Part shown: piece by piece, positions 2,727 to 26,542 of the stretch | Numbering within the stretch: the first letter of the stretch is position 1 | Layout of the letters: every line of letters starts with the position of its first letter | Origin: Desulfobia sp. | Lineage (GTDB): Bacteria > Desulfobacterota > Desulfobulbia > Desulfobulbales > SURF-16 | Direction: 5' to 3' | DNA: 32,124 nucleotides | Assembly: GCA_041641775.1 (NCBI GenBank) | Contig: JBEPXR010000004.1 | Coordinates: 1 to 32,124 of the forward strand | Made by a program: the position numbers and the translations under genes | The notes under the pieces: generated by a model | Seen by the model: only the letters and a program-made list of their open reading frames with translations | What the model was told of the DNA's origin: nothing | The model's database searches: none

Positions 2727-3845
2727 GTGAAGAATATAAGAGAGCTGCCGCTTAAGTCAACAGAGGTGGAGAAAATTACCGGAGAAAAAATTTTAATCAT
2801 CAAACCGAGTTCACTGGGGGATATTATACATACCCTTCCGGTGGCGCATGCCATCAAAAGAGGCCATCCCGACTGCCATCTGGGCTGGCTGGTACAGAAA
2901 CCTTTCCGCACTCTGCTGGAAAGAGATCCTGCCGTAGATGAGGTTATTGCCCTTAATATCCCTTCCACCAGTGAACCCGGCGCAGGTTTCCGGTCCTGGC
3001 TGCTGGCGGGCAGGGCAACTTTCACCACCCTCCTGGAGCTGCGAAGACGCTTCAAGAGAGATCCTTTTGATCTGGTTCTCGACCTGCAGGCTTCGTTCCG
3101 TTCGGCACTTATCAGCCAGGCCAATCCTGGAGGATTCCGGGTGGGCTTTGCAGACGCCCGGGAAGGAAATTCTCTGATTCAGGACCACAGGATAGAGGTG
3201 ACTGAGCCGAGAATGCACGCCCTGGATAAAAACCTCCTTTTTTGCAGCTATCTTGAATGTACCGTCTTGAAAGATGATTTTTTTCTGCCATTCAATCATG
3301 ATGATGAACTGGCAGCTGGAAAATTCCTGAGGAGTTATGTCGGAAAGATAGTCTCCAATAAAAAAATTATCTATTTTAACCCGGCAGCCCGCTGGGAAAC
3401 CAAATTCTGGCAGCCCGAAAAATGGGCCTTGCTGGGGGACAGATTGGCCGGAGAACTCGACAGCCTCGTCATTTTAGCCGGCGGCAGGGGAGACCGGAAT
3501 TATCTCATGAGGATTGCAGGATACATGAAGGAGAGAGCGGCAGTCACTGCCGGAGACCTGTCCCTTGCCGGCATCGCGGCCCTGATGGCCAGGACCTCCG
3601 TTTATGTAGGGCTTGATTCGGGACCCATGCATATGGCGGCAATGGCAGGAGTTCCGGTGGCAGCACTTTTCGGGCCGACTAATCCCGAACTGGTCAAACC
3701 CTATGGTGTGGCGCACCGGATAATCAGAAACGAGGGAATGGATTGTCTCGGCTGCCGGAAAAGGAGCTGTGAAACGCTGACCTGTATGAAAGGTATTACG
3801 GTGGACCAAGTCCATGAGGCAGTGCTTGAGCTGGCAAACAGGTAA
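2727..3845 (+). CDS. LPS heptosyltransferase (GT9 family, WaaC/WaaF-like)
   Basis: ILIIKPSSLGDIIH, FDLVLDLQ, WETKFW, DSGPMHMAAMAGVPVAALFGPT and C-terminal CxxC...C...CMKGI. The start may instead be GTG 2766. Confidence 0.9.
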   Translation: MKNIRELPLKSTEVEKITGEKILIIKPSSLGDIIHTLPVAHAIKRGHPDCHLGWLVQKPFRTLLERDPAVDEVIALNIPSTSEPGAGFRSWLLAGRATFTTLLELRRRFKRDPFDLVLDLQASFRSALISQANPGGFRVGFADAREGNSLIQDHRIEVTEPRMHALDKNLLFCSYLECTVLKDDFFLPFNHDDELAAGKFLRSYVGKIVSNKKIIYFNPAARWETKFWQPEKWALLGDRLAGELDSLVILAGGRGDRNYLMRIAGYMKERAAVTAGDLSLAGIAALMARTSVYVGLDSGPMHMAAMAGVPVAALFGPTNPELVKPYGVAHRIIRNEGMDCLGCRKRSCETLTCMKGITVDQVHEAVLELANR

Positions 3846-4634
3846 TCAGTCCAGGTAAAAGCGGCTCAGGGCGGTCAGGCTTTCTTCCAGCTCTTCTTTG
3901 CGGTGGGGTTCCAGGGTCACGACAGGATTGACATTGTTTGTCTTGAGCCAGTTAAAGAGACCGGCAAAATCGAATTTTCCCTTTCCCATGGGCAGATGAT
4001 CGTCTCGCAGGCCATGATTGTCATGGAGATGGAGTTGGCCGAGCCAGGGTTTCATAACGGGGAGCCAGTTTTGCCAGATGTCTCCGGCAAAGGCCAGGAG
4101 GTGTCCAGTGTCCAGGCAGAACCCGGCATAGTCTGAATCAATGGCTTCAAGAATCTTCTTATGCCGACCGGGTGCTGTTTCATAAGTGTTTTCAAGCATC
4201 AAGGGTGTGTCAGCTTCTTTCGCCCGGTTGACAAAAATCTGCCAGGCTTCCAGATTATACCGCAGCCACTCCTCCTCTTTATAGCTGTGCTTATTTTCTT
4301 CAAAACCCAGGTGGCAGACAATGGATGCCGGTTTAAATACCGGCAGCAGATCCAGAGACAGATGTATTTTAGAGCGGCTGGCTTCTCTGATATAGGGGTC
4401 TACGGCCCCGACACTCAATTCATGAAAGGGGGCGTGCAGAGTGCAGTGCAACTCGGCTTCCTGAAGTTTGCCGGCTACTTCATCGAACAGGGTCCGCGGG
4501 GTTTCGTACAGGATATTGCCTTCCAGGCCGATCTCCGGCTGAATTCTCTTTTCCAGAAGCCAGTCGAGATTATCATGGAGAAAACCAAAGGGGGCATTAA
4601 CAAAGCACTGGCTGGTGATCTCGCTGCTGTTCAT
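3846..4634 (-). CDS. Sugar phosphate isomerase/epimerase (xylose isomerase-like / AP endonuclease 2 TIM barrel)
   Basis: Metal-binding motifs TLHAPF, VCHLG, MLENT, CLDTGH, LHLHDNHG..DDHL, TLEPH. Confidence 0.85.
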   Translation of the reverse strand: MNSSEITSQCFVNAPFGFLHDNLDWLLEKRIQPEIGLEGNILYETPRTLFDEVAGKLQEAELHCTLHAPFHELSVGAVDPYIREASRSKIHLSLDLLPVFKPASIVCHLGFEENKHSYKEEEWLRYNLEAWQIFVNRAKEADTPLMLENTYETAPGRHKKILEAIDSDYAGFCLDTGHLLAFAGDIWQNWLPVMKPWLGQLHLHDNHGLRDDHLPMGKGKFDFAGLFNWLKTNNVNPVVTLEPHRKEELEESLTALSRFYLD

Positions 4635-4667
4635 TTTGCTGCCAGATATATTCGGTTGCCTGATTTT

Positions 4668-4832
4668 TCAGAAAGTCTCTGCTTCATCGATCAGCATGAT
4701 AGGGATGTCATCTTCTATCCTGTAGATGAGACGGCATTTTTCACAGATCAATCCATCTTTTCGTTCGTTTAAAACTACAGGCCCCTTGCACTTCGGACAG
4801 GCCAGTATGTCAATCAGATCCTGTTGTATCAT
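4668..4832 (-). CDS. Trm112/YcaR (UPF0434) family small zinc-ribbon protein, 54 aa
   Basis: Below the ORF-track cutoff. Translation MIQQDLIDILACPKCKGPVVLNERKDGLICEKCRLIYRIEDDIPIMLIDEAETF matches the LACPxCKG...Y.I.D.IP.ML.DEA pattern. Strong SD AGGAGG upstream; typical LPS/msbA neighbourhood. Confidence 0.92.
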   Translation of the reverse strand: MIQQDLIDILACPKCKGPVVLNERKDGLICEKCRLIYRIEDDIPIMLIDEAETF

Positions 4833-5048
4833 AATTCCTCCTGGGCGGTTTCGGGTCCCGAGTCTCTTAATGAAAAGGTTTGTATGTCTTCCAGATCATG
4901 GACCCTGCTACATTATATATTGTCATATTCACTTATAAGGAGTAGATTTAGCGCCTTTCGTAGAAAAGAACGCAGCGCCGCCGGATAGTCCAGCTTGAAG
5001 CCGACAGGCAATATACCATAGATGACTTTTTAACAATTTAATTTTTTA

Positions 5049-6858: not shown

Positions 6859-8385
6859 ATGATGAAACAGTACTCGCCTTCCTGGAAAATCAGTGGTTCC
6901 CTGTTGAGCTTCATTCTGACCTACTGGATTATCTTCTTAAATCCAGTAATCAATCATGACGGCATTCTTTATCTCCAGACTGCAGACCTGTTCCTCCAGG
7001 GAGATTGGAGCGGAGCCGTCAATCTGTACCCCTGGCCTTTTTATCCTCTTATCATTGCCATCCTGAGCAAGTTCACATCCCTGGCGCTTGAATCGTCGGC
7101 CCACCTGATTACCGCACTTTCCGCGGCTATGCTGACCTATGTTTTTCTTGTTCTTTTACAGGAGATCGACCGAGAGAAGACTGTCCCGTTTTTCATTGCG
7201 GTCTTTGTCATCGTTTTTTTTTCGGAGCTGAATGAAACCAGAAATCTGATTGTCAGGGAACATGGATACTGGTCCTTCTATCTCCTGGCTCTTCTCTTAT
7301 TCCTCCGTTTTTACAGGTTGCCGACCATTTTCTACGGCCTCGGCTGGAACATGTGCATGATAATCGCTACCCTGTTCCGGATTGAGGGTCTGGTCTTTCT
7401 TGTGTTGCTCCCCGTTCTGTTCCTGTTACGTAAGGACCTGAGATTGCTGACAAGATGCAGACAGTTCCTGGCTGCTAACTGTCTGACCATGGGGCTTGTG
7501 CTCGGCGGCCTGCTGCTGTTTTTCACCGGCCTGCTGCCGGAATGGCTGAACAGCAGCCGGCTTACCGACCCCCTGTTCTTTCTGAACAGGCTTCAGGATG
7601 CCCTGGGTGGGGGGTTGGCGGAGAACGCCGCTGTTATTGAAGATGAGATCCTGAACAAGTATTCGGGGGATGCGGCTATCTGGGCGGCTCTTGCTATACC
7701 TCTTATTATCATTGGCCTGGCACTCATCAAGGCTCTGACTCCACTTTATGCGGTACTTCTCTGCTGGCAGCCCGGCCGCAATATATCGCGCCTGCGAAAT
7801 CTGGAAGGTGCTGTTTTCCTTTGGGCAGTCTTTCTGAATCTGCTCATCTTTGTCGTAGTTACCCTCGCCCGTTATTTTCTTTTTGAGCGTTTTGTCCTGC
7901 CCCTCGTCTTCTTACTGCTGCTTGTCCTTTGTTTTACCCTTGCAGCCCTCTATGCCCGCTGGAAGAAAGAGGGCGGTAGACAGCAGCCATGGCGGAAGAA
8001 ATGGATCTACTATCTGCTCTGTCTGCTGCTGATTGTAAACAGCGGCGAAGCCCTTTTTCATCTTCCCGGAGACTCGAAAAGATACCTCAAAACCGCTGGC
8101 ATATGGCTCCGGGAGAATGTTGATCAAGATGCCCGGATATTTACCAATAATATCAAATTGCGTTTTTACAGTGGCAAGTTGGATAACGAAGATCTGCCGG
8201 CTCACGAGATAATTGCCGAGGAGAGTCTGCGAAATTGGCTGAGAGAGGAATACGACTATTACGCCCTTTGGCTCGATCACCGCAGCTCCCTCTCCGGCGA
8301 TGAGGTTGACACTCTGATGGGAGGCGGTCCATTGCATCGTTTTGCCAACAACAGGGGCGATCAGGTTTTGATATACCGGAGATGA
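6859..8385 (+). CDS. Polytopic membrane protein, probable GT-C fold glycosyltransferase (PMT/ArnT-like)
   Basis: About 11-13 hydrophobic segments, first-loop motif NHDGILYL followed by YPWPFYPLII, short soluble C-terminal domain; directly downstream of msbA. Confidence 0.6.
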   Translation: MMKQYSPSWKISGSLLSFILTYWIIFLNPVINHDGILYLQTADLFLQGDWSGAVNLYPWPFYPLIIAILSKFTSLALESSAHLITALSAAMLTYVFLVLLQEIDREKTVPFFIAVFVIVFFSELNETRNLIVREHGYWSFYLLALLLFLRFYRLPTIFYGLGWNMCMIIATLFRIEGLVFLVLLPVLFLLRKDLRLLTRCRQFLAANCLTMGLVLGGLLLFFTGLLPEWLNSSRLTDPLFFLNRLQDALGGGLAENAAVIEDEILNKYSGDAAIWAALAIPLIIIGLALIKALTPLYAVLLCWQPGRNISRLRNLEGAVFLWAVFLNLLIFVVVTLARYFLFERFVLPLVFLLLLVLCFTLAALYARWKKEGGRQQPWRKKWIYYLLCLLLIVNSGEALFHLPGDSKRYLKTAGIWLRENVDQDARIFTNNIKLRFYSGKLDNEDLPAHEIIAEESLRNWLREEYDYYALWLDHRSSLSGDEVDTLMGGGPLHRFANNRGDQVLIYRR

Positions 8386-15051: not shown

Positions 15052-15399
15052 GTGGAAGAAGTGTCTGATTCAGTAGATCTCGTCCTGTTAAAGGCCTGTC
15101 TGAAAGAGAAATACAATCTTAGAGAGCCTCAACAGGAGAAACTGATCAAGGTTTCCGCCCAATCCATTAAAGAAAGTCTTGATAATGCCGAAGAAGCTCT
15201 TGCTGAAAGGGATCTGCAGGCCCTCTCTGAATACGCTCATAAATTGAAGGGAACGCTTTTAATCATGTCCCTCGATACCTGGGCTGACAAGGCAGATGAA
15301 ATCCATTCAGCAGCCGAGCGGGGAAGTAAGCTGAACTATGCAACCTTACTCAGGGAAATTCGGGGTGGACTGAAGATGCTTTGTGAGCAGGGGGAGTAA
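15052..15399 (+). CDS. Stand-alone histidine phosphotransfer (Hpt) domain protein
   Basis: Helical 115 aa with H-box YAHKLKGTL. SD AGGAG spacing favours GTG 15061 as the true start. Confidence 0.8.
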   Translation: MEEVSDSVDLVLLKACLKEKYNLREPQQEKLIKVSAQSIKESLDNAEEALAERDLQALSEYAHKLKGTLLIMSLDTWADKADEIHSAAERGSKLNYATLLREIRGGLKMLCEQGE

Positions 15400-17039: not shown

Positions 17040-18110
17040 GTGAAGACGAACGGCAACCTTAACTATGGACACCAGACCGGGAGCAATGAAAAGGTAGTGG
17101 ACAAAGACAGCATCCTCCTCGATCATGGCAGCGGTGGTCTTGCCAGCCAGAAATTGGTCAGTGATATTTTCCTGAGCCAGCTGGATAATCCTTTTCTGGC
17201 CGGGCTGGAAGACAGCGCCGTTCTTGGAAAGATAGAAGGCCGCGTGGTCTTTACCACCGACAGCTATGTGGTTGATCCTCTCTTCTTTCCGGGGGGGGAC
17301 ATAGGGAGTCTATCCGTTCATGGTACGATTAACGATCTGGCCATGAGAGGAGCCCGGCCTATATGCCTGAGTCTGGGCTGCATTATTGAAGAAGGCTTTT
17401 CAATGGCTGATCTCAAGAGAATTGCCGCTTCAATCGCCGGGGCCTGCCGGGAGTCCGGTGTTGTCATAGCCACCGGTGATACCAAGGTAGTCCCAAGGGG
17501 GAAAGGAGACGGTATCTATTTGAATACTTCTGGAGTGGGTTCCGTCCCGGAGGATCTTACTGTTTCCACTTCCCTGGCCAGGCCGGGAGATAAGATAATC
17601 CTCTCCGGCACCATGGCAGACCACGGCATTGCCATTCTAACCAGTCGGACGGGACTAACAATGGAAGGTGATTTTCGGAGTGACAGCCAGCCCCTTCATT
17701 TTATGGTCGGAGAACTCTGTGAATCCCTCGCCGGAAATCTTCACAGTCTCAGAGATCCTACCAGAGGAGGGGTGGCGACTTCTCTCTGTGAAATAGCGTC
17801 AAGCAGCAGGGTGGGCATAATTATCGAAGAAAGTGCCCTGCCTGTAAGATCCCAAACTCGAGGGGCGTGCGAGATTCTCGGGCTTGAGCCATTATATCTT
17901 GCCAATGAAGGGAAATGTCTGGTAATAATTCGAGAAGAAAAGGCTGAACTGGCCCTGGAGATAATGCGCAACCGTTTGGAAGGCAGGGACGCCGTCATCA
18001 TCGGGAGTGTCACTGAAGGACCGGAAGGCAGAGTGGAGATGATCACCGGAATCGGGGGTAGAAGACTCATCGCTCCTCTGGCCGGTGAACCGTTGCCCAG
18101 AATATGTTAG
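17040..18110 (+). CDS. hypE: Carbamoyl dehydratase HypE
   Basis: HGSGG, TTDSYVV, GDTKVV, RDPTRGG, ANEGK, C-terminal PRIC. The start could be GTG 17097. Confidence 0.96.
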   Translation: MKTNGNLNYGHQTGSNEKVVDKDSILLDHGSGGLASQKLVSDIFLSQLDNPFLAGLEDSAVLGKIEGRVVFTTDSYVVDPLFFPGGDIGSLSVHGTINDLAMRGARPICLSLGCIIEEGFSMADLKRIAASIAGACRESGVVIATGDTKVVPRGKGDGIYLNTSGVGSVPEDLTVSTSLARPGDKIILSGTMADHGIAILTSRTGLTMEGDFRSDSQPLHFMVGELCESLAGNLHSLRDPTRGGVATSLCEIASSSRVGIIIEESALPVRSQTRGACEILGLEPLYLANEGKCLVIIREEKAELALEIMRNRLEGRDAVIIGSVTEGPEGRVEMITGIGGRRLIAPLAGEPLPRIC

Positions 18111-18231
18111 AAAATAAGGTAGAGGAAATTAAGAAAAGATAAGGTGGCAATCTGTCAAGGTGCCCCGGAAAACCCCGGATTGCAGTATGTGAGACATTTC
18201 TGAAACAACAAATCTTATCCCCCTGAATGTA

Positions 18232-20442
18232 ATGGCCCAGCCCAAGAAGAAATCAACCCAGCAGACTTCTTTGCGGTCCACCGTAAAGGATCAGTCCGGC
18301 GCAGGAAAGACCAGGATCGGTGAAATACTGCGCAAAGAAGGCCAGATCCTGACCAGGCAGCTCGAGGAAGTCAAGCAGATCCAGAAGAAGACCGGCCAGC
18401 GGCTAAGCACGATCCTGGTTCAGCAAGGGCATATAGATGAAGATACGGTTGTCAAGGTTTTGAGCCGTATTCATAACTACAAGGCCGTTGATCTGACTAA
18501 AGAGCCTCCCAATCCCCAGGTTATCAAGATCGCACCTTTCGATACAGTCAAGAAGTACTGTGCCATGCCACTCAGGGTAAAGGATGACGTCCTGCACATT
18601 ACCATGGCTGAACCGACAGACACTTCCGCCGTGGAATCTCTTCAGTCTGAACTGAAGATGACCTTGTCTGTCGGTGTTTCTACGGAAAAGGACATTCTCA
18701 ACGCCTACAAGAAGTACTATAAGATCAGCGATGAAGAGTATAATAAACTGCTGGGCGGCAAGGAAGACGTAGAAGCCGAAGAGGAGGAAATTACCAGTGT
18801 TGACGATTTTGGTTCTCTCGCTTCGGAAGCTGCTGAAGAAGTCGCTCTTGAGGTGGAGGCAGGGGAGGAAGAAGCGGAAGAGTTTTCTTTCGGTGACGCC
18901 CCTATAATCAAGCTGGTAAACGGTATTCTGGTCAAGGCGGTCAAAGATGACGTCAGTGATATTCACATCGAGCCTTACGAAAAGAATCTCCAGATACGCT
19001 ACCGGCTTGACGGAGCCCTTTTCCGGGCCATGAATTTGCCTCTTTCCATCAAAAATGCGTTGATCTCCCGTGTAAAAATACTGGCTAATCTGGACATAAC
19101 CGAACGCAGGATTCCCCAGGACGGCAGGATAAAAATGAGGGTAGGGAAGAGCAAGATCGTCGATTTCCGGGTCTCTACCTTGCCCACCCTGTGGGGAGAA
19201 GGAATAGTTCTTCGTATTCTGGATAAAGGATCTCTCAATGTTGATCTGACCAAGCTGGGCTTCGAGGAAGATACTTATGCCGCCCTGAGACGGAGTCTTA
19301 ATATGCCCCAGGGGCTTCTTCTGGTTACCGGACCGACAGGAAGCGGTAAAACCGTGACCCTGTATTCAGCTCTGAATTCACTGAATACCGAAGATAATAA
19401 GCTCCTCACCGCAGAGGATCCGGTGGAATTCAACTTCAAGGGCATAAACCAGGTTAATGTCCGCGACGAAGTGGGGATGACTTTTGCCGCCGCTCTGAAG
19501 GCCTTTCTCCGCCAGGATCCAGATATAATCATGGTCGGTGAGATCAGGGATATGGAAACCGCTGAAATTGCGATCAAGGCCGCCATGACGGGCCATCTGG
19601 TTTTTTCCACTCTCCATACCAATGACAGTCCTTCCACCATCGGCCGTCTTGTAGATATAGGCGTCCCCTCGTACATGCTTTCAGCCTCCCTGACCATGGT
19701 GCAGTCACAAAGACTGGGGAGAAGGCTTTGCACGGAATGCCGTCGTCCCATCACTCTCCCGGACCAGGAGGAGTTGATCGGTCATGGCTTTGAGGAGGAA
19801 CAACTTGAAGGGCTTACCCTCTATGGTCCGGTGGGCTGCACCAGGTGTCGGGGCACCGGCTACAAGGGCAGGGTCGGTTTTTTCGAGTTAATGGAAGTCA
19901 CTGACGAGGTGGCCAAGGCGATCAGTGCGGAAGTGCCTGAAGATCAATTGAGAAAAGTAGCTATCCAGGAAGGCATGAAGCCCTTGCGCAAGGCGGCCAT
20001 CCAAAAGGCCATAAAAGGAGTTACAAGTCTTGACGAGGTCCTGAAGCGTACTGTTATTACTGAAGAGAGCCTGCCCGCCTACCTCGTCAATCCTGATATC
20101 GAGCTCTACGAGGATGGCGATGTCATAATTCACCAAAGCAATCAGGATATCGATTTTTTCCAGCTTATCCAGGGAACCCTGATGGTGGTCAGAGACGGGA
20201 ATAAAATAGCGGAAATAACCGAACCAAACGAATATTTTGGCGAGATGTCGGCTATATCCGGCGAACCCCGTTCTGCTTCGATCATATCCAAGGGCCGTAC
20301 TAAGATTAAAAGGTTCCCAGGAGATAAGATGATGGAGATTATAGAAAAACATCCCAAGGTGGCGAAGCATCTCTTCAAAACTCTGGTCAATCGCCTTTCC
20401 CAATCCAACCAGGTTCTGATTAATCTGGCCAAAAGAAGATAG
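18232..20442 (+). CDS. pilB: Type IV pilus assembly ATPase PilB with N-terminal MshEN motif and C-terminal cyclic-nucleotide-binding domain
   Basis: SDIHIEP, PQDGRI, Walker A GPTGSGKT, AEDPVE, LRQDPDIIMVGEIRD, TGHLVFSTLHTN, Zn motif CTEC...CTRC; extra ~110-aa C-terminal domain with FGEMS...PRSAS. Confidence 0.92.
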   Translation: MAQPKKKSTQQTSLRSTVKDQSGAGKTRIGEILRKEGQILTRQLEEVKQIQKKTGQRLSTILVQQGHIDEDTVVKVLSRIHNYKAVDLTKEPPNPQVIKIAPFDTVKKYCAMPLRVKDDVLHITMAEPTDTSAVESLQSELKMTLSVGVSTEKDILNAYKKYYKISDEEYNKLLGGKEDVEAEEEEITSVDDFGSLASEAAEEVALEVEAGEEEAEEFSFGDAPIIKLVNGILVKAVKDDVSDIHIEPYEKNLQIRYRLDGALFRAMNLPLSIKNALISRVKILANLDITERRIPQDGRIKMRVGKSKIVDFRVSTLPTLWGEGIVLRILDKGSLNVDLTKLGFEEDTYAALRRSLNMPQGLLLVTGPTGSGKTVTLYSALNSLNTEDNKLLTAEDPVEFNFKGINQVNVRDEVGMTFAAALKAFLRQDPDIIMVGEIRDMETAEIAIKAAMTGHLVFSTLHTNDSPSTIGRLVDIGVPSYMLSASLTMVQSQRLGRRLCTECRRPITLPDQEELIGHGFEEEQLEGLTLYGPVGCTRCRGTGYKGRVGFFELMEVTDEVAKAISAEVPEDQLRKVAIQEGMKPLRKAAIQKAIKGVTSLDEVLKRTVITEESLPAYLVNPDIELYEDGDVIIHQSNQDIDFFQLIQGTLMVVRDGNKIAEITEPNEYFGEMSAISGEPRSASIISKGRTKIKRFPGDKMMEIIEKHPKVAKHLFKTLVNRLSQSNQVLINLAKRR

Positions 20443-20593
20443 CTCCCAATACCGGTGCCCTGTATCTGCCAGAAGTGCCGGTCAAATTTTCTATCCTTTC
20501 AAGCGCAGCCTTTCGGGTGTTGCTGCGTCCACAGCTACTATCCCTCCAGTCATACTAAACGATGTCAGCGGTAATTTTTGTGCCAAGAATTTA

Positions 20594-20622
20594 TTGCAAA
20601 ACGTTGAAAATTTTTATAGGTT
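20594..20622 (+). promoter_or_regulatory. Putative sigma-70 promoter of the folD-cooS cluster
   Basis: TTGCAA-N17-TAGGTT in an AT-rich intergenic segment. Confidence 0.4.
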
Positions 20623-20766
20623 ACAGGATTGTGTCTTTACTCTGAAATTTTTTTGCCCGGCTGGATTCCATTGGTATCTGTTGCAGGTTCTAAGTCATAT
20701 TTCCCCTCTGACCGGGTAATCGAAACTGAAAACTTATGAAAAAATCATAATGGCCAAGGAGAATGT

Positions 20767-21648
20767 ATGAGTGCAAAGATTATTAGCGGTAAGGAAAACG
20801 CTCAGGCTATCAAGGAAGAACTGAAAGTAGAAGTTGATGAGCTCAAGGAAAAAGGTATTGTTCCCGGTCTGGTGACTATCCTGGTTGGTGATGATCCGGC
20901 GTCCCAGTCCTATGTTAATGCCAAGAATAAGACGGCCCATAATCTGGGCATCAATTCCGAGCAGATTAATCTTGATGCCGATGTCAGTGAAGAGGAGCTC
21001 CTTAACCTGGTAAAAAAGTATAACAACGACGACAAGGTCCACGGCATTCTTGTCCAGCTGCCGCTTCCCAAACATATTAACGACAGCAAGGTGCTCAATG
21101 CCATTAATCCTGACAAAGACGTCGATGGTTTTCACCCCGAAAACGTCGGAAGAATGGTTTTGGGCGAACAGTGCTTTCTGCCCTGCACCCCTCATGGTAT
21201 ATTGGAACTGCTTTCCAGGAGCGGCGTGGAGACCAGCGGTGCCGAAGTCGTCGTTGTTGGTCGTAGCAATATCGTCGGCAAACCCATAACCAATCTCATG
21301 CTCCAGAAGAGGAAAGGAGGCAATGCCACGGTAACCATTTGCCATACCGGAACCAGGGATATGAGCGTTCATACTAAAAAAGCTGATATAGTGATTGTGG
21401 CAGCGGGTGTTCCCAAGATGCTCACCGCAGATATGGTGAAGGACGGGGTTGTCGTAATCGATGTCGGGGTTAATCGTATGGGAATGACTGAGGAAGGCAA
21501 AGCCATTCTGGCCGGAGACGCCGACTTTGATACCATCAAGGAAAAAGCCGCGGCCATAACCCCGGTTCCCGGCGGGGTGGGACCAATGACCATAACGATG
21601 TTGATGAAAAATACCGTCCAGTCAGCCCGCCAGGCTGCCGGGTTGTAG
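20767..21648 (+). CDS. folD: Bifunctional methylenetetrahydrofolate dehydrogenase/cyclohydrolase FolD
   Basis: VGDDPASQSYV, GILVQLPLP, KDVDGFHP, PCTPHG, VVGRSNIVGKP, DVGVNR, TPVPGGVGPMT. Confidence 0.97.
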   Translation: MSAKIISGKENAQAIKEELKVEVDELKEKGIVPGLVTILVGDDPASQSYVNAKNKTAHNLGINSEQINLDADVSEEELLNLVKKYNNDDKVHGILVQLPLPKHINDSKVLNAINPDKDVDGFHPENVGRMVLGEQCFLPCTPHGILELLSRSGVETSGAEVVVVGRSNIVGKPITNLMLQKRKGGNATVTICHTGTRDMSVHTKKADIVIVAAGVPKMLTADMVKDGVVVIDVGVNRMGMTEEGKAILAGDADFDTIKEKAAAITPVPGGVGPMTITMLMKNTVQSARQAAGL

Positions 21649-21673
21649 GAGTTTTACTGTAAGGAGATTTACT

Positions 21674-23662
21674 ATGGCTACATCACGAACCGATTGTGAA
21701 GGTTGTAACGATATAACCTGTGGATCTACCCAGGATGTTCTGGCTCAGGATCTTTCTCAAAATATTATTACCGCCTATGATCGGATAGAGGCAAGGGGCA
21801 TGTCTGCCTGTCTGTTCGGTTCTGGGGGTACCTGCTGCCGGAACTGCAATATGGGCCCCTGTCAGATTATAGATGGGGTGCCAGACATGATCGGAGTATG
21901 CGGGGCAACGGCTGATACAGTTGCCGCCCGGAACTTCACCAGAACGATAGCCTCCGGTTCTGCAGCGCACACGGACCATGCCAGAGAGATGGTCAAAGGC
22001 TTTATCGATGCCGCCAAAGGCCACGGCCCTCATGGCATAAAAGATGGAAATAAGCTGAACATGCTGGCCGAGGTCTTCGGGGTCGAAACTGAAGACAGAT
22101 CCAAGGAGGAGATTGCCTTGGAGATCGGCGAGAAAGCCCTGGCTGATTTCGGTAAACAGGATGAAACCCCCATAACCATGGTCAATCGGGCTCCCAAGAA
22201 GCGCCAGGAGCTTTGGAAAAGGCTTGGCGTGACCCCCAGAGGAATTGATCGCGAAATCGTAGAGATGATGCATCGGACCCACATGGGTGTCGACCAGGAA
22301 TATCATAACTTGATGCTTCAGGGCACCCGCTCTGCATTGGCTGACGGCTGGGGCTCTTCCATGCTGTCCACTGAGCTGACTGATGTGATGTTCGGTACCC
22401 CAGTGCCAAGACGTGCTATTGTGGATCTCGGCGTATTACAGCCTGATCAGGTCAATGTCACTGTTCACGGCCATGAGCCTCTGCTCGCTGAGTCTCTCTG
22501 TCTGGCTGCTCAGGATGAAGAAATTCAGACGCTGGCCCAGAAGGCCGGAGCCAAAGGGGTCAATCTTGCTGGGGTCTGCTGTACCGGAAACGAGATTCTG
22601 ATGCGGCGTGGAATACCTGTCGCCGCAGGATTTATCCAGCAGGAGATGGCCCTGGCCACAGGTGCTATCGAGGCCATGGTCGTTGATGTCCAGTGTATAA
22701 TGCAGTCGGTCACAGATGTGGCCAAATCATTCCACACCGATATTATTACCACCAATTATCGGGCAAAAATGCCTGAATCTGTCCATATCCAGTTTGAAGA
22801 GGATAGGCCTCTGGAAAGCGCCAAGGAGATTCTGAAGAAGGCAATTGCCAATTACAGGAAACGGGAGACCTACTATATCCCCCAGGCCTCGAAATTCGAT
22901 GTGGTTGTCGGCTTCAGTCATGAAACCATAAATTATATGCTTGGTGGCCGCTTCCGCTCCAGTTACCGGCCCTTGAACGACAACATCATCAATGGCCGGA
23001 TTAGAGGGGTTGCAGCTATAGTTGGTTGTGACAATTACAAGATGATGGATAACCGCCACGAGATCATTGCCCGGGAATTGATCAAAAACGATGTTCTTGT
23101 TCTGGCCACAGGCTGTGCCGCCACCGGACTTGGCCGGGTGGGTCTCGTCCGTCCTGAGGCGGCAAAAGAGGCGGGCCCGGGTCTGTCTGAGGTCTGTGAA
23201 GCTGTGGGTATGCCTCCTGTTCTTCACTGCGGCAGCTGCGTTGACAACAGTCGCCTCCTGATAGCCGCTACCGAAATGGTTCGGGAGGGGGGACTGGGAG
23301 ATGATATATCTGATCTTCCGCTTGCAGGTACCGCCCCCAGCTGGATGAGCGAAAAGGCGGCCGCTATCGGACAGTATTTTGCTGCCAGCGGCTGTTATGT
23401 TGTTTTTCAGGGTCTGCCGGTCACCGGTGCCAAAAATTTTACCAAATTTCTCACTGAAGAGATGAAGGATATCTATGGCGGGCGCTGGGATATTGAAGAA
23501 GATCCTGTCAAGCTGGCACACAGGATGATCGCCAATATAGATGAAAAACGCAAGGCCCTCGGTATTGATAAACAGAAGGAGAGGGTCCTCTTTGACATGG
23601 AGATGCGGCGTGATATGGCAGGATCTGGTCTCAAAGATGCTGGATGTAAGGGACCTGCCTGA
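21674..23662 (+). CDS. cooS: Anaerobic Ni-dependent carbon monoxide dehydrogenase catalytic subunit (CooS/AcsA)
   Basis: D/B-cluster C-X7-CCRNCNMGPC...C; C-cluster ligands HGHEP, CCTGNE, DVQC, GCDN, TGCA, GSCVDNSR; catalytic AAHTDH and WMSEKA. Confidence 0.96.
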   Translation: MATSRTDCEGCNDITCGSTQDVLAQDLSQNIITAYDRIEARGMSACLFGSGGTCCRNCNMGPCQIIDGVPDMIGVCGATADTVAARNFTRTIASGSAAHTDHAREMVKGFIDAAKGHGPHGIKDGNKLNMLAEVFGVETEDRSKEEIALEIGEKALADFGKQDETPITMVNRAPKKRQELWKRLGVTPRGIDREIVEMMHRTHMGVDQEYHNLMLQGTRSALADGWGSSMLSTELTDVMFGTPVPRRAIVDLGVLQPDQVNVTVHGHEPLLAESLCLAAQDEEIQTLAQKAGAKGVNLAGVCCTGNEILMRRGIPVAAGFIQQEMALATGAIEAMVVDVQCIMQSVTDVAKSFHTDIITTNYRAKMPESVHIQFEEDRPLESAKEILKKAIANYRKRETYYIPQASKFDVVVGFSHETINYMLGGRFRSSYRPLNDNIINGRIRGVAAIVGCDNYKMMDNRHEIIARELIKNDVLVLATGCAATGLGRVGLVRPEAAKEAGPGLSEVCEAVGMPPVLHCGSCVDNSRLLIAATEMVREGGLGDDISDLPLAGTAPSWMSEKAAAIGQYFAASGCYVVFQGLPVTGAKNFTKFLTEEMKDIYGGRWDIEEDPVKLAHRMIANIDEKRKALGIDKQKERVLFDMEMRRDMAGSGLKDAGCKGPA

Positions 23663-23917: not shown

Positions 23918-26542
23918 ATGAAAGCTGGAAGCCGATTAGAAAAGATTCTCACTTCAGGTGAATTTGCTGTTACCGGAGAGCTCGGTCCGCCAAAAAGCGG
24001 AAGATCTGAAGTGGTCCGGGAAAAGGCAAGACTGCTGAAAGACTATGTGGATGCAGTCAATATAACTGACTGCCAAACCGCAATAGTCAGAATGTCCAGT
24101 ATAGGAGCCGGCCTCCTGGTTTTACAGGAAGGGGTCGAGCCCGTCATTCAGATGACCTGCCGGGACAGAAACAGGATAGGCATGCAGAGTGACATTCTTG
24201 GCGCCTCTGCTCTGGGGCTCAAAAATCTGCTCTGCCTGACCGGGGATCACCAGAAGTTTGGCAATCATCCCGGTGCCAAAGGGGTCTTTGATATGGACTC
24301 CATCCAGATGCTCGGAATGATGAAAGGAATGCGGGACGACAGCGTTTTCCAGTGTGGAGAAGAAATAAAAACCGATGCCCCTGAGTTGTTTCTCGGTTGC
24401 GCTGCCAACCCATTTGCCTACCCTCATGAGTTCAGGGCGACACGGCTGGCGAAGAAAGTCAATAGCGGAGCGGATTTTGTCCAGACCCAGATCGTCTATA
24501 ATCTGGATCGGTTCAGGGAATTCATGAAGATGGTTCGTGATCTGGGAGTTCATGAAAATACGTACATTCTGGCAGGTGTGACTCCCCCTAAGTCGCTTGG
24601 AATGGCAAGATACATGAAAAAAAATGTCCCGGGGCTGGATGTGACCGACGAAGTTATAGACCGGCTGCAGGATGCTTCCGATAAGGCTGAAGAGGGTATA
24701 AATATTTGTGTGGATATCATAAACCAGGTGAAAGACATCGAAGGAGTCGCTGGTGTCCACATAATGGCGATCGAATGGGAGGAAGCTGTCCAGGAGATTG
24801 TCAAAAGGGCAAAACTTGATAAACGCCCCCAGGTTGATCTTGAAATGCCTGGTTCTGTCCAGCCAGCCAGAGAAACGGTCGCAGTGCGCGGGACAGCTGA
24901 GGAAGATGTTGAGGCGGAGAGAGAACGCATTTTGGCCGAAGCCAGAGAAGAGGCTGCCAGAATGGTTGAATCTGCCCGGAAGCAGGTTGAACTGAAAGGA
25001 GAAATTCCATCCGGAGATGACGCAGGAGAGCATGAAATGAATGAAAAAGAGCGCCAGGCGGCCCTGGAAGCCGTCAATAGTGGTCTTAGGGCATTAAAGA
25101 CATCGTTGAATCTGAGTGATGAACAGTTCGAGGCATTGACCAGTTTTGCCGGAGCTGAAGCAATATTAAAAAAAGAGCCCCCTAAATCCGGCACACTGAA
25201 ATCCGTCCCGGTACCAAGTGTGACCGAGCAGGCCGAATCTGTTCCAGCGACTGAGACAGGCGCTGAAGCAGAAAAGGCCGAGGAGTCCAGGAAAGCTGAA
25301 GAAGCCAAAAAGGCTGAGGAAGCCAGGCAGAAGGCGGAAGAAGCTAAAAAGGCAGAAGAAGCTAAGAAAGCCGAGGAGACCAGAAAGGCTGAAGAGGCTA
25401 AAAAGGCAGAAGAAGCTGAAAAAGCCGAAGAAGCCAAAAAGGCGGAAGAAGCCAGAAAGGCTGAAGAGGCCAGGAAAGCCGAGGAAGCGGTAAAGACGGC
25501 TCCCGAACCTGAGAAGAAAGAGGTGAGTACACCGGCCAGTGCGGAACTTTCCGCTGCAGAACTTGATCGGGAAAAATCTTCTCTGGGTGAAAGGGCCTCC
25601 AAGGTGCCTGCGGACTCCTATACCATGAAATATACCGGCCAGATCAGGGAGACCGTCCTCGGCAATGGGAATAATCAGGTCAAGGTTGGGGGGGAACAGG
25701 TCCTGCCATTTCATCAGTTTGAAGGTAATATCCCCAATAAGCCCCTGATTGCCATGGAGGTACCCGACGTCAAGCCTGAGGAATGGCCCGAATCTCTTAT
25801 CCGGCATTTTGAAGATGTTAAGGACAGCCCGCTGGACTGGGCCCGTAAATGCATTAACGAATATAAAGCGGAAGCTATCTGTCTCTCCCTGGGCAGCACA
25901 GACCCCAACGGCAAGAACCGGTCTGCAGCTGAAGCCGCCAAGGATGCGGCCGAGGTTATCAACAACGTTGATGTTCCGGTTATCGTGTGGGGCTGCGGTA
26001 ATTCCGAAAAGGATACTGAGAGCTTGAGAGAAGTAACTGCCCAGATCGGCGACAAGAAGGTCTGTCTGGCTCCCTTGGAGGATACCAATTACAAATCGCT
26101 GGGTGCTACAGCCATGGCCTTCCAGCATCCCATGGTCGCAGCTTCTCCCATAGATGTCAACCTCGCCAAGCAGCTCAATATTCTTCTGGAGAATCTGGGA
26201 GTTTCTCTCGACACCATTTTGATGGATCCTTCCATAGGCGCCCTTGGCTATGGAATAGAGTATACCTACTCTGTGATGGAGAGGATACGTCTTGCCGCCC
26301 TCACCCAGCAGGATGAGAAACTGCAGAACGGCTTGATCTGCAACCTGGGAGTACAGGTCTGGAAGGCGAAGGAAGCCAAATTGCCCACCGACGACATGAT
26401 GGGCGATATGGAAAAACGGGGTATTATGATGGAGGCTATAACCGCATCCTGCATGCTTCTGGCAGGTGGTGAAGTTCTGATTATGAGGCATCCCAAAGCC
26501 GTTAATCTCACCAAGTCCCTTATCAAGGGGCTGTTAGGATAA
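23918..26542 (+). CDS. Fusion protein: methylenetetrahydrofolate reductase (MetF), helical/low-complexity linker, corrinoid Fe-S protein small subunit (AcsD/CdhD)
   Basis: aa 1 to ~304 are MetF (GELGPPK, DAVNITD, QMTCRDRNR, LCLTGD, GADFVQTQ, GVHIMAIEWEE). aa ~568-874 are AcsD (VGGEQVLPFHQFEG, STDPNG, SPIDVNLAKQLN, MDPSIGALGYGIEYTYSVMERIR, MRHP). One continuous frame. Confidence 0.9.
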   Translation: MKAGSRLEKILTSGEFAVTGELGPPKSGRSEVVREKARLLKDYVDAVNITDCQTAIVRMSSIGAGLLVLQEGVEPVIQMTCRDRNRIGMQSDILGASALGLKNLLCLTGDHQKFGNHPGAKGVFDMDSIQMLGMMKGMRDDSVFQCGEEIKTDAPELFLGCAANPFAYPHEFRATRLAKKVNSGADFVQTQIVYNLDRFREFMKMVRDLGVHENTYILAGVTPPKSLGMARYMKKNVPGLDVTDEVIDRLQDASDKAEEGINICVDIINQVKDIEGVAGVHIMAIEWEEAVQEIVKRAKLDKRPQVDLEMPGSVQPARETVAVRGTAEEDVEAERERILAEAREEAARMVESARKQVELKGEIPSGDDAGEHEMNEKERQAALEAVNSGLRALKTSLNLSDEQFEALTSFAGAEAILKKEPPKSGTLKSVPVPSVTEQAESVPATETGAEAEKAEESRKAEEAKKAEEARQKAEEAKKAEEAKKAEETRKAEEAKKAEEAEKAEEAKKAEEARKAEEARKAEEAVKTAPEPEKKEVSTPASAELSAAELDREKSSLGERASKVPADSYTMKYTGQIRETVLGNGNNQVKVGGEQVLPFHQFEGNIPNKPLIAMEVPDVKPEEWPESLIRHFEDVKDSPLDWARKCINEYKAEAICLSLGSTDPNGKNRSAAEAAKDAAEVINNVDVPVIVWGCGNSEKDTESLREVTAQIGDKKVCLAPLEDTNYKSLGATAMAFQHPMVAASPIDVNLAKQLNILLENLGVSLDTILMDPSIGALGYGIEYTYSVMERIRLAALTQQDEKLQNGLICNLGVQVWKAKEAKLPTDDMMGDMEKRGIMMEAITASCMLLAGGEVLIMRHPKAVNLTKSLIKGLLG
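25274..25492 (+). repeat. Coding tandem repeat: 12 copies of KAEE(A/S/T)x (18-bp unit, one 21-bp unit) inside the metF-acsD linker
   Basis: KAEESR KAEEAK KAEEARQ KAEEAK KAEEAK KAEETR KAEEAK KAEEAE KAEEAK KAEEAR KAEEAR KAEEAV, with synonymous codon variation between units. Confidence 0.95.

Follow-up and report, generated by a model that had tools for sequence, protein, structure and literature searches.

We analysed a 32,124-nt stretch of DNA from Desulfobia sp. (GenBank assembly GCA_041641775.1, contig JBEPXR010000004.1, positions 1 to 32,124 of the forward strand; hereafter the window), in which one open reading frame (ORF) encodes the type IV-A pilus assembly ATPase PilB with a cyclic-nucleotide-binding (CNB) domain joined to its C-terminal end. 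Sequence comparisons indicate that this fusion, PilB-CNB, is a real and widespread variant of a known motor, undescribed in the literature that we searched, and they suggest that a cyclic nucleotide may act directly on the pilus motor.

PilB with a C-terminal CNB domain

The protein has the architecture of an MshEN-T2SSE PilB to which a CNB domain and a C-helix are added at the C-terminus (Table 1). A Pfam scan of the whole protein matched cNMP_binding at 49.5 bits (gathering cut-off 27.5) over profile positions 4-89 of 89, and the score was 53.6 bits when the tail was scanned alone. An earlier reading made from the letters only (the sequence-only reading) had proposed such a domain behind the PilB end, and the architecture scan placed it there well above the cut-off; every string that it had quoted, GVTSLDEVLKRT (aa 596-607), YEDGDVIIHQ, FFQLIQGTLMV, YFGEMSAISGEPRSASI and EKHPKVAKHLFKTLVNRL, was located in the translation. 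The extension that it had described does exist but is longer than the claimed 120 or so residues, since the reading frame runs 129 aa beyond T607, where a normal PilB stops. Its label 'CRP-type' was imprecise: no helix-turn-helix (HTH) family was found among the Pfam matches at E≤1 for the whole protein, which stops 29 residues past the CNB match, and the best profile matches are CNB domains of the PKG/PKA/HCN type. The label is too specific, since an HTH is missing and the closest free relatives within the phylum, proteins of about 250 aa, each have two tandem CNB domains; with regulators of the CRP family, it is the C-helix alone that aligns.

In PilT/VirB11-like ATPases the core motifs have recognised roles, and the C-terminal domain (CTD) carries a tetracysteine zinc site. 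Read in the translation, the ATPase core of PilB-CNB contains Walker A (GPTGSGKT), Walker B (DPDIIMVGEIRD), the His box (GHLVFSTLHTND) and the CTEC and CTRC pairs; these catalytic and zinc motifs are intact and line up with those of the solved PilB 3jc8. The roles of the Walker A, Walker B and His box motifs in PilB are given in the accessible part of a 2024 review (PMC11656802). The best solved relatives are the PilBs of Myxococcus xanthus (3jc8) and of Geobacter metallireducens / G. sulfurreducens (5tsg, 5tsh, 6olj, 5zfr), which share the N1D-N2D-CTD layout and align end to end with aa 26/28-607/609 of our protein (E about 1e-154). These PilBs stop 2-5 residues past the point at aa 607/609 where the 129 aa of linker, CNB domain and C-helix start here, so that the last 129 residues are extra in comparison with characterised PilBs, which end at the ATPase domain, as had been asserted.

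The source assembly is a fragmented metagenome-assembled genome (MAG; 369 contigs, 83.6% complete), and nothing else speaks for the extension being an artefact of assembly or gene calling, or a recent accidental fusion. Closed genomes and hundreds of independent assemblies contain the same uninterrupted ORF with a conserved linker, which refutes an artefact. Since the fused ORF recurs in hundreds of genomes, it is more than a chance event, and we give this explanation next to no credence.

Distribution and origin of the fusion

A search with aa 560-736 returned 1338 proteins at E≤0.001, and the best 120 all carried PF00437 together with PF00027; names among these 120 include Desulfobia, Desulfurivibrio, Thiovibrio and Desulfobulbaceae. 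The fused proteins are called simply "PilB" in the database. Genomes were scored with a junction-spanning query (aa 541-736), and a strong match was defined as E≤1e-40 over query positions 1-193 or more of 196. Among 401 Desulfobulbia genomes (16 families, 81 genera), 400 gave some match and about 363 (hand count) gave a strong match across the junction, in open frames of about 740-800 aa. Of 146 genomes from the rest of the phylum, 8 carry the fusion, and these 8 represent five families; the matches in the remaining ones were limited to a PilB tail or a free CNB protein.

The nearest named relatives of the stretch that holds the fused gene belong to Candidatus Desulfobia (94% identity). Carriers include the cable bacteria Candidatus Electrothrix and Electronema, as well as the cultured Desulfobulbus elongatus DSM 2908, D. 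alkaliphilus DSM 24258, D. rhabdoformis DSM 8777, Desulfogranum marinum DSM 2058, Thiovibrio frasassiensis and Desulfurivibrio dismutans. In a whole order of sulfur bacteria that matter to the environment, the cable bacteria among them, the fusion is the standard form of PilB, and because cultured strains carry it, the hypothesis of a nucleotide-controlled motor is directly open to ordinary biochemistry. One genus (g51 of family f9) is mostly without a fused PilB: six of its seven sampled genomes gave weak matches only, and two genomes of this genus that were tested had no PilB-level ATPase at all.

When 1.84 billion representatives were searched with the tail profile, multi-CNB repeat proteins dominated the top of the list, and we therefore rejected the search as a count of the family. 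Among its best 150 hits, 15 single-stretch hits start at the PilB terminal helix (profile position 1-2), and T2SSE plus cNMP_binding was present in 7 of the 8 of these that were scanned. One of these 7 comes from a Nitrospinota MAG, where a 340-kb contig (ORF at 3001-5001 of locus L161) encodes a 667-aa MshEN-T2SSE-CNB protein that is 43-47% identical to the fused PilBs of Desulfobulbaceae and is without the N-terminal region of the cyclic di-GMP (c-di-GMP) motif.

We then compared the ATPase parts, with linker and CNB domain removed, in a quick IQ-TREE maximum-likelihood tree of 38 rows with a midpoint root. The 20 fused rows, those from other classes included, fell on one side of a branch with an SH-aLRT support of 100 and a stem of 0.91, opposite the 12 unfused true PilBs of other Desulfobacterota, which are a small sample. 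This topology is consistent with a single origin of the fusion.

The fused gene as the PilB of its carriers

The protein scored 744.2 bits against the NCBIfam equivalog model TIGR02538 (type IV-A pilus assembly ATPase PilB; cut-off 675.65), with aa 29-608 covering profile positions 2-563 of 564, while its score against the GspE model fell below the cut-off (551.2 versus 630.25). The source genome holds three further full-length T2SSE ATPases, all under the PilB cut-off: a GspE accompanied by GspD and GspF, a GspE-like protein with a GspF, and an MshE-like protein of 556 aa (contig 150, 473-2140) with a GspF-like gene next to it. Moreover, it encodes PilT (TIGR01420, 463.5 bits, contig 57), a lone T2SSF/PilC-type gene on contig 88, and pilM-pilN-pilO on contig 29. 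The fused gene was the sole match above the PilB cut-off in 5 of 5 closed or near-complete fusion-bearing genomes. Five high-quality genomes of the class that have no fusion were examined as well, and none of the five had a match over the TIGR02538 cut-off; these genomes appear to miss PilB itself, beyond just the tail. Taken together, these results support the view that the fused gene is the true PilB orthologue of its carriers.

Conservation and probable ligand competence of the CNB domain

We aligned 36 tails reaching down to 42% identity, and found invariant residues in the cassette (F669, G670, E671, M672, R680 and A682), in the linker (L614, P615, Y617, L618 and P621) and in the helices (P708 and R721). 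The cassette, whose G-E...R-S pattern had been called intact and is so in PilB-CNB of the window, keeps FGE-x8-R-x-A in 163 of 164 genuine unique tails, the remaining one having LGE; the residue after its Arg is S in 116 of these tails, T in 33, N in 6, A in 6 and G in 2. A call between cyclic AMP (cAMP) and cyclic GMP (cGMP) from the residue after R680 was dropped as undecidable from this mixture. Across 116 full-length relatives, the mean column conservation was 0.852 for the CNB domain, 0.881 for the linker and 0.875 for the ATPase, and by this measure the CNB domain is as conserved as the ATPase.

The tail profile matched 180 PDB sequences at E≤0.01, the top matches being a Toxoplasma multi-CNB protein, Plasmodium PKG, PKA regulatory subunits, PycTIR, HCN2/4 and SthK. 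In CNB domains an eight-stranded beta-barrel is covered by the B and C helices, which form a lid. The cassette aligned without gaps to PKG cassettes, with equal Glu-to-Arg spacing, and for HCN2/4, SthK, MlotiK1, GlxR and M. tuberculosis CRP the alignment, which is one of sequence only, ran on through the C-helix. R721-L722 stand opposite Arg-Leu and S725-N726 opposite Thr-Asn in the GlxR alignment, which is weak alone (E 0.33); a longer query matched the same GlxR-type chains at E 1.4e-5. We take the equivalent C-helix pair in E. coli CAP to contact adenine, and treat this as a lead and not as a test. A Gly-Glu...Arg-x-Ala cassette is the signature of ribose-phosphate binding to 3',5'-cyclic nucleoside monophosphates (cNMPs). 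Overall, these comparisons support a genuine CNB domain that by its sequence is ligand-competent, and from them we infer that the ligand is probably cAMP or cGMP and that its binding would affect the motor allosterically.

Cyclases and a possible supply of ligand

Two class III cyclases are encoded in the source genome; a MASE6 domain precedes the cyclase domain in one of them and a CHASE2 domain in the other. Cyclases were surveyed in 81 class genomes at least 95% complete, with the source genome (83.6%) counted in. PF00211 was present in 77 of the 81, and two of the four genomes without it (G033 and G010) are the only two of the sample that are without a fused PilB; class III cyclases therefore co-occur with the fusion in 77 of its 79 carriers. 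The other two genomes, G002 and G055, have no PF00211 match, yet they hold a fused PilB with an intact cassette. A CYTH protein is encoded in G055 and G012. The genomes are kin, and the co-occurrence of cyclase and fusion is only suggestive. Seven cNMP_binding matches were counted in the genome of G002.

A possible switch on pilus extension and its alternatives

We propose, with modest confidence, that the PilB motor has been extended by a CNB domain that switches pilus extension post-translationally via cAMP or cGMP; the same slight preference applies jointly to the view that the fused PilB powers type IVa pilus extension in the cell and that the CNB domain regulates it. Membrane-bound class III cyclases, MASE6- and CHASE2-linked in the source genome, would make cAMP or cGMP, and the nucleotide would bind the cassette, with G670 and E671 at the ribose and R680 and A682 at the phosphate. 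Its binding may reposition the C-helix, and via the invariant linker beside the last CTD helix this might change the conformation of the hexamer or the docking of a partner (PilM or PilC); pairing of C-helices between protomers would possibly contribute to the change in the hexamer. Extension could be either activated or inhibited in this way, and c-di-GMP may be a further input through the N-terminal MshEN motif, which is partly canonical.

Several points weigh against this proposal. The conservation of the cassette leaves the ligand unspecified, with S, T, N, A or G after the Arg, and PycTIR (8jsk), which the tail matched at E 6e-15 over profile positions 27-135, presumably binds pyrimidine cNMPs. 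G055 has a CYTH protein only and no PF00211 match, and in G002 (99% complete, all but 1569 nt searched) neither a PF00211 nor a CYTH cyclase was found, which is a small point against endogenous cAMP or cGMP as the ligand. The PycTIR match, the unfixed residue and the intact cassette of G002, a genome with no recognisable class III or CYTH cyclase, would fit a CNB domain that binds another small molecule (cCMP/cUMP, a cyclic dinucleotide or a non-nucleotide) and still regulates the motor; some sensor domains of the CRP/FNR family bind non-nucleotide ligands. The cassette itself, with its PKG-like spacing and cNMP signature, and the cyclases of 77 of the 79 fusion-bearing genomes argue against such a ligand, which we consider unlikely.

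The Nitrospinota protein bears on a second alternative. Its cassette is degenerate, with Cys for Gly and His for Arg, which shows that the domain can persist and have some value without a canonical site, and the tail might be a ligand-independent module of CNB descent that serves oligomerisation, stabilisation or docking (for example to PilM, PilC or a polar landmark). Contacts between proteins or within the molecule are suggested by the invariant linker and by the clade-specific N-terminal motif described below, and the C-helix is similar to the helix through which CRP-family proteins dimerise. However, the same variant shows that the fold tolerates loss of the cassette residues, so that the retention in the main clade of the ligand-only residues G670, E671, R680 and A682, invariant to 42% identity and intact in 163 of the 164 tails, implies selection for binding. 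We judge a role without ligand decidedly unlikely.

Third, no pil genes stand beside pilB-CNB in any locus examined. The gene lies alone among hydrogenase-maturation and Wood-Ljungdahl genes, folD following it in 42 and CODH in 37 of 80 loci of its relatives (20443-23662 in the window), and its ATPase core sits on the long stem branch of 0.91. These features might indicate a different type IV filament machine that is gated by a cNMP, such as a secretion pseudopilus, a conductive or adhesive fibre, or a DNA uptake system. Such a machine is highly improbable in our view: the protein scores over the cut-off of the PilB equivalog model, the genome encodes GspE- and MshE-like paralogues elsewhere, together with GspF partners of their own, PilT and pilMNO are present, and the closest solved relatives are the PilBs of the type IVa pili of Myxococcus and Geobacter.

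Finally, c-di-GMP binding to C. perfringens PilB2 left ATP hydrolysis unchanged in vitro, according to the accessible part of the review (PMC11656802), so that binding of a messenger to PilB-CNB need not alter its ATPase rate either. The same part reports that c-di-GMP altered the nucleotide selectivity of another PilB (PMC11656802). Because the effects of c-di-GMP differ between PilBs, the output of PilB-CNB may be subtler than an ATPase that is turned on or off.

The N-terminal region and a possible second messenger

NF053729, the MshE-related c-di-GMP motif, matched aa 28-79 at 42.1 bits (cut-off 38), with the correct motif spacing. The MshEN motif as defined in the accessible part of PMC5013675 differs at three positions from that of PilB-CNB, which has K48 for Leu in motif I, and S59 for Gly and I80 for Gln in motif II. 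Of 116 relatives, 103 have Lys as the first residue, and across the 116 motif II ends in L/I/V. Binding of c-di-GMP at this site is possible. The MshE-like ATPase on contig 150 has a stronger c-di-GMP motif (NF053729, 62.6 bits) and is a putative second messenger-sensing ATPase of the source genome.

The extension in front of the MshEN motif carries a peptide of the pattern [ST][IVL][KR]D[QE]xG in 120 of 124 fused sequences, compared with 0 of 12 unfused true PilBs of the phylum; an N-terminal extension and a long separate branch set the fused clade apart from unfused PilBs. Tentatively, and with more doubt than belief, we suggest that two messengers might be integrated in the motor, c-di-GMP at MshEN and cAMP or cGMP at the CNB domain. 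CRP-like C-helices would pair neighbouring protomers, three CNB dimers would clamp or release the C2-symmetric hexamer, and the N-terminal peptide would dock. If this were true, CHASE2 and MASE6 sensor cyclases of Desulfobulbales, the cable bacteria among them, would control pilus extension on a time scale of seconds with no need for transcription, and environmental cues would be linked directly to movement or attachment by pili.

Comparison with known nucleotide-sensing systems

PilB-CNB resembles MshE, PilF and PilB2 in that a nucleotide second messenger would be sensed by a domain within the motor ATPase, as described for those proteins in the accessible parts of PMC5013675 and PMC11656802. 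Their sensor is N-terminal, has another fold and binds a cyclic dinucleotide, whereas in PilB-CNB a second sensor, from the CNB superfamily, would join it at the C-terminus. M. xanthus PilB binds c-di-GMP via its MshEN domain, as stated in the same part of the review (PMC11656802). PKG, PKA regulatory subunits, HCN channels and SthK are the best profile matches, with gap-free cassettes and the same Glu-to-Arg spacing; their outputs are a kinase or a channel, whereas the output of PilB-CNB would be a hexameric secretion-type ATPase. The canonical CNB layout has an N-terminal helical bundle before the barrel, and in PilB-CNB, as read from the alignment, a 14-residue invariant linker takes its place. 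CRP/FNR receptors (E. coli CAP/Vfr type; GlxR, 4cyd/4byy/3r6s; M. tuberculosis CRP, 3d0s) would share the CNB fold and the long C-helix, and the tail aligns to GlxR through aa 732, but these receptors have an HTH DNA-binding domain, whereas PilB-CNB ends at the C-helix.

The sequence-only reading had held that cAMP control of pili is usually transcriptional. This agrees with the accessible part of the 2024 PilB review, in which cAMP enters only via CyaB and Vfr transcription, Vfr being the only cAMP input, and in which a text search did not find the phrase "cyclic nucleotide" (PMC11656802). Known second-messenger control of the extension motor is described there as c-di-GMP acting at MshEN or via FimX/PilZ (PMC11656802). 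Our full-text literature searches, with supplementary tables outside their reach, found no paper describing a PilB-CNB fusion; the list of MshEN proteins that supplements PMC5013675 may already contain such an architecture. If the CNB domain regulates PilB, it would let a cNMP switch a type IV filament motor directly, and it would represent a new output class for CNB domains, with no precedent in the papers searched.

Gene map and genomic neighbourhood

Table 1. Features of the pilB-CNB gene, in coordinates of the window
Feature	Position	Strand	Evidence or remark
pilB-CNB gene	18232..20442	+	single ORF, 736 aa plus stop
Clade-specific N-terminal motif S16-T-V-K-D-Q-S-G23, pattern [ST][IVL][KR]D[QE]xG	18277..18300	+	inside the extension of about 27 aa that precedes the MshEN motif
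MshEN-type c-di-GMP motif pair, aa 28-51, 5-aa spacer, aa 57-80, partly canonical	18313..18471	+	NF053729
MshEN / GSPII N1D domain, aa 82-167	18475..18732	+	Pfam PF05157, 44.9 bits
T2SSE ATPase core (N2D + CTD), aa 221-604	18892..20043	+	Pfam PF00437, 452 bits
Conserved linker from last PilB helix to CNB barrel, aa 605-625	20044..20106	+	alignment of 36 sequences
CNB domain, aa 626-707	20107..20352	+	Pfam PF00027 cNMP_binding, 49.5 bits
Phosphate-binding cassette F669-G-E-M-S-A-I-S-G-E-P-R680-S-A682	20236..20277	+	invariant residues in alignment; gap-free match to Plasmodium PKG cassettes
B/C-helix region, aa 708-736, with invariant P708 and R721	20353..20439	+	alignments; S725-N726 face Thr-Asn of GlxR

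The hydrogenase genes hyaABC, hypF, a histidine phosphotransfer (Hpt) protein gene, hypD and hypE lie upstream of pilB-CNB, and the Wood-Ljungdahl genes folD and CODH/ACS lie downstream. The arrangement upstream is uncommon among the relatives, with hypD/hypE in only 2 of the 80 loci, and in other families fhs, thyX, an ELM1-like gene or glycosyltransferases are found near pilB-CNB instead. We rejected the neighbourhood as a clue to function, since the neighbours vary between families and are never pil genes. A promoter and terminator scan of 17900-20900 found no more sites than in shuffled sequences.

Three other ORFs of the window, all on the forward strand, were noted. A 508-aa ORF at 6859-8385, between an ABC transporter gene and the small subunit gene of a NiFe hydrogenase, matched no Pfam family at E≤1e-5. 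In the Wood-Ljungdahl cluster, an 874-aa ORF at 23918-26542 has an MTHFR domain at aa 6-298 and, in the same frame, a CdhD-like domain at aa 579-824. The Hpt protein, of 115 aa, is encoded at 15052-15399, between hypF and hypD.

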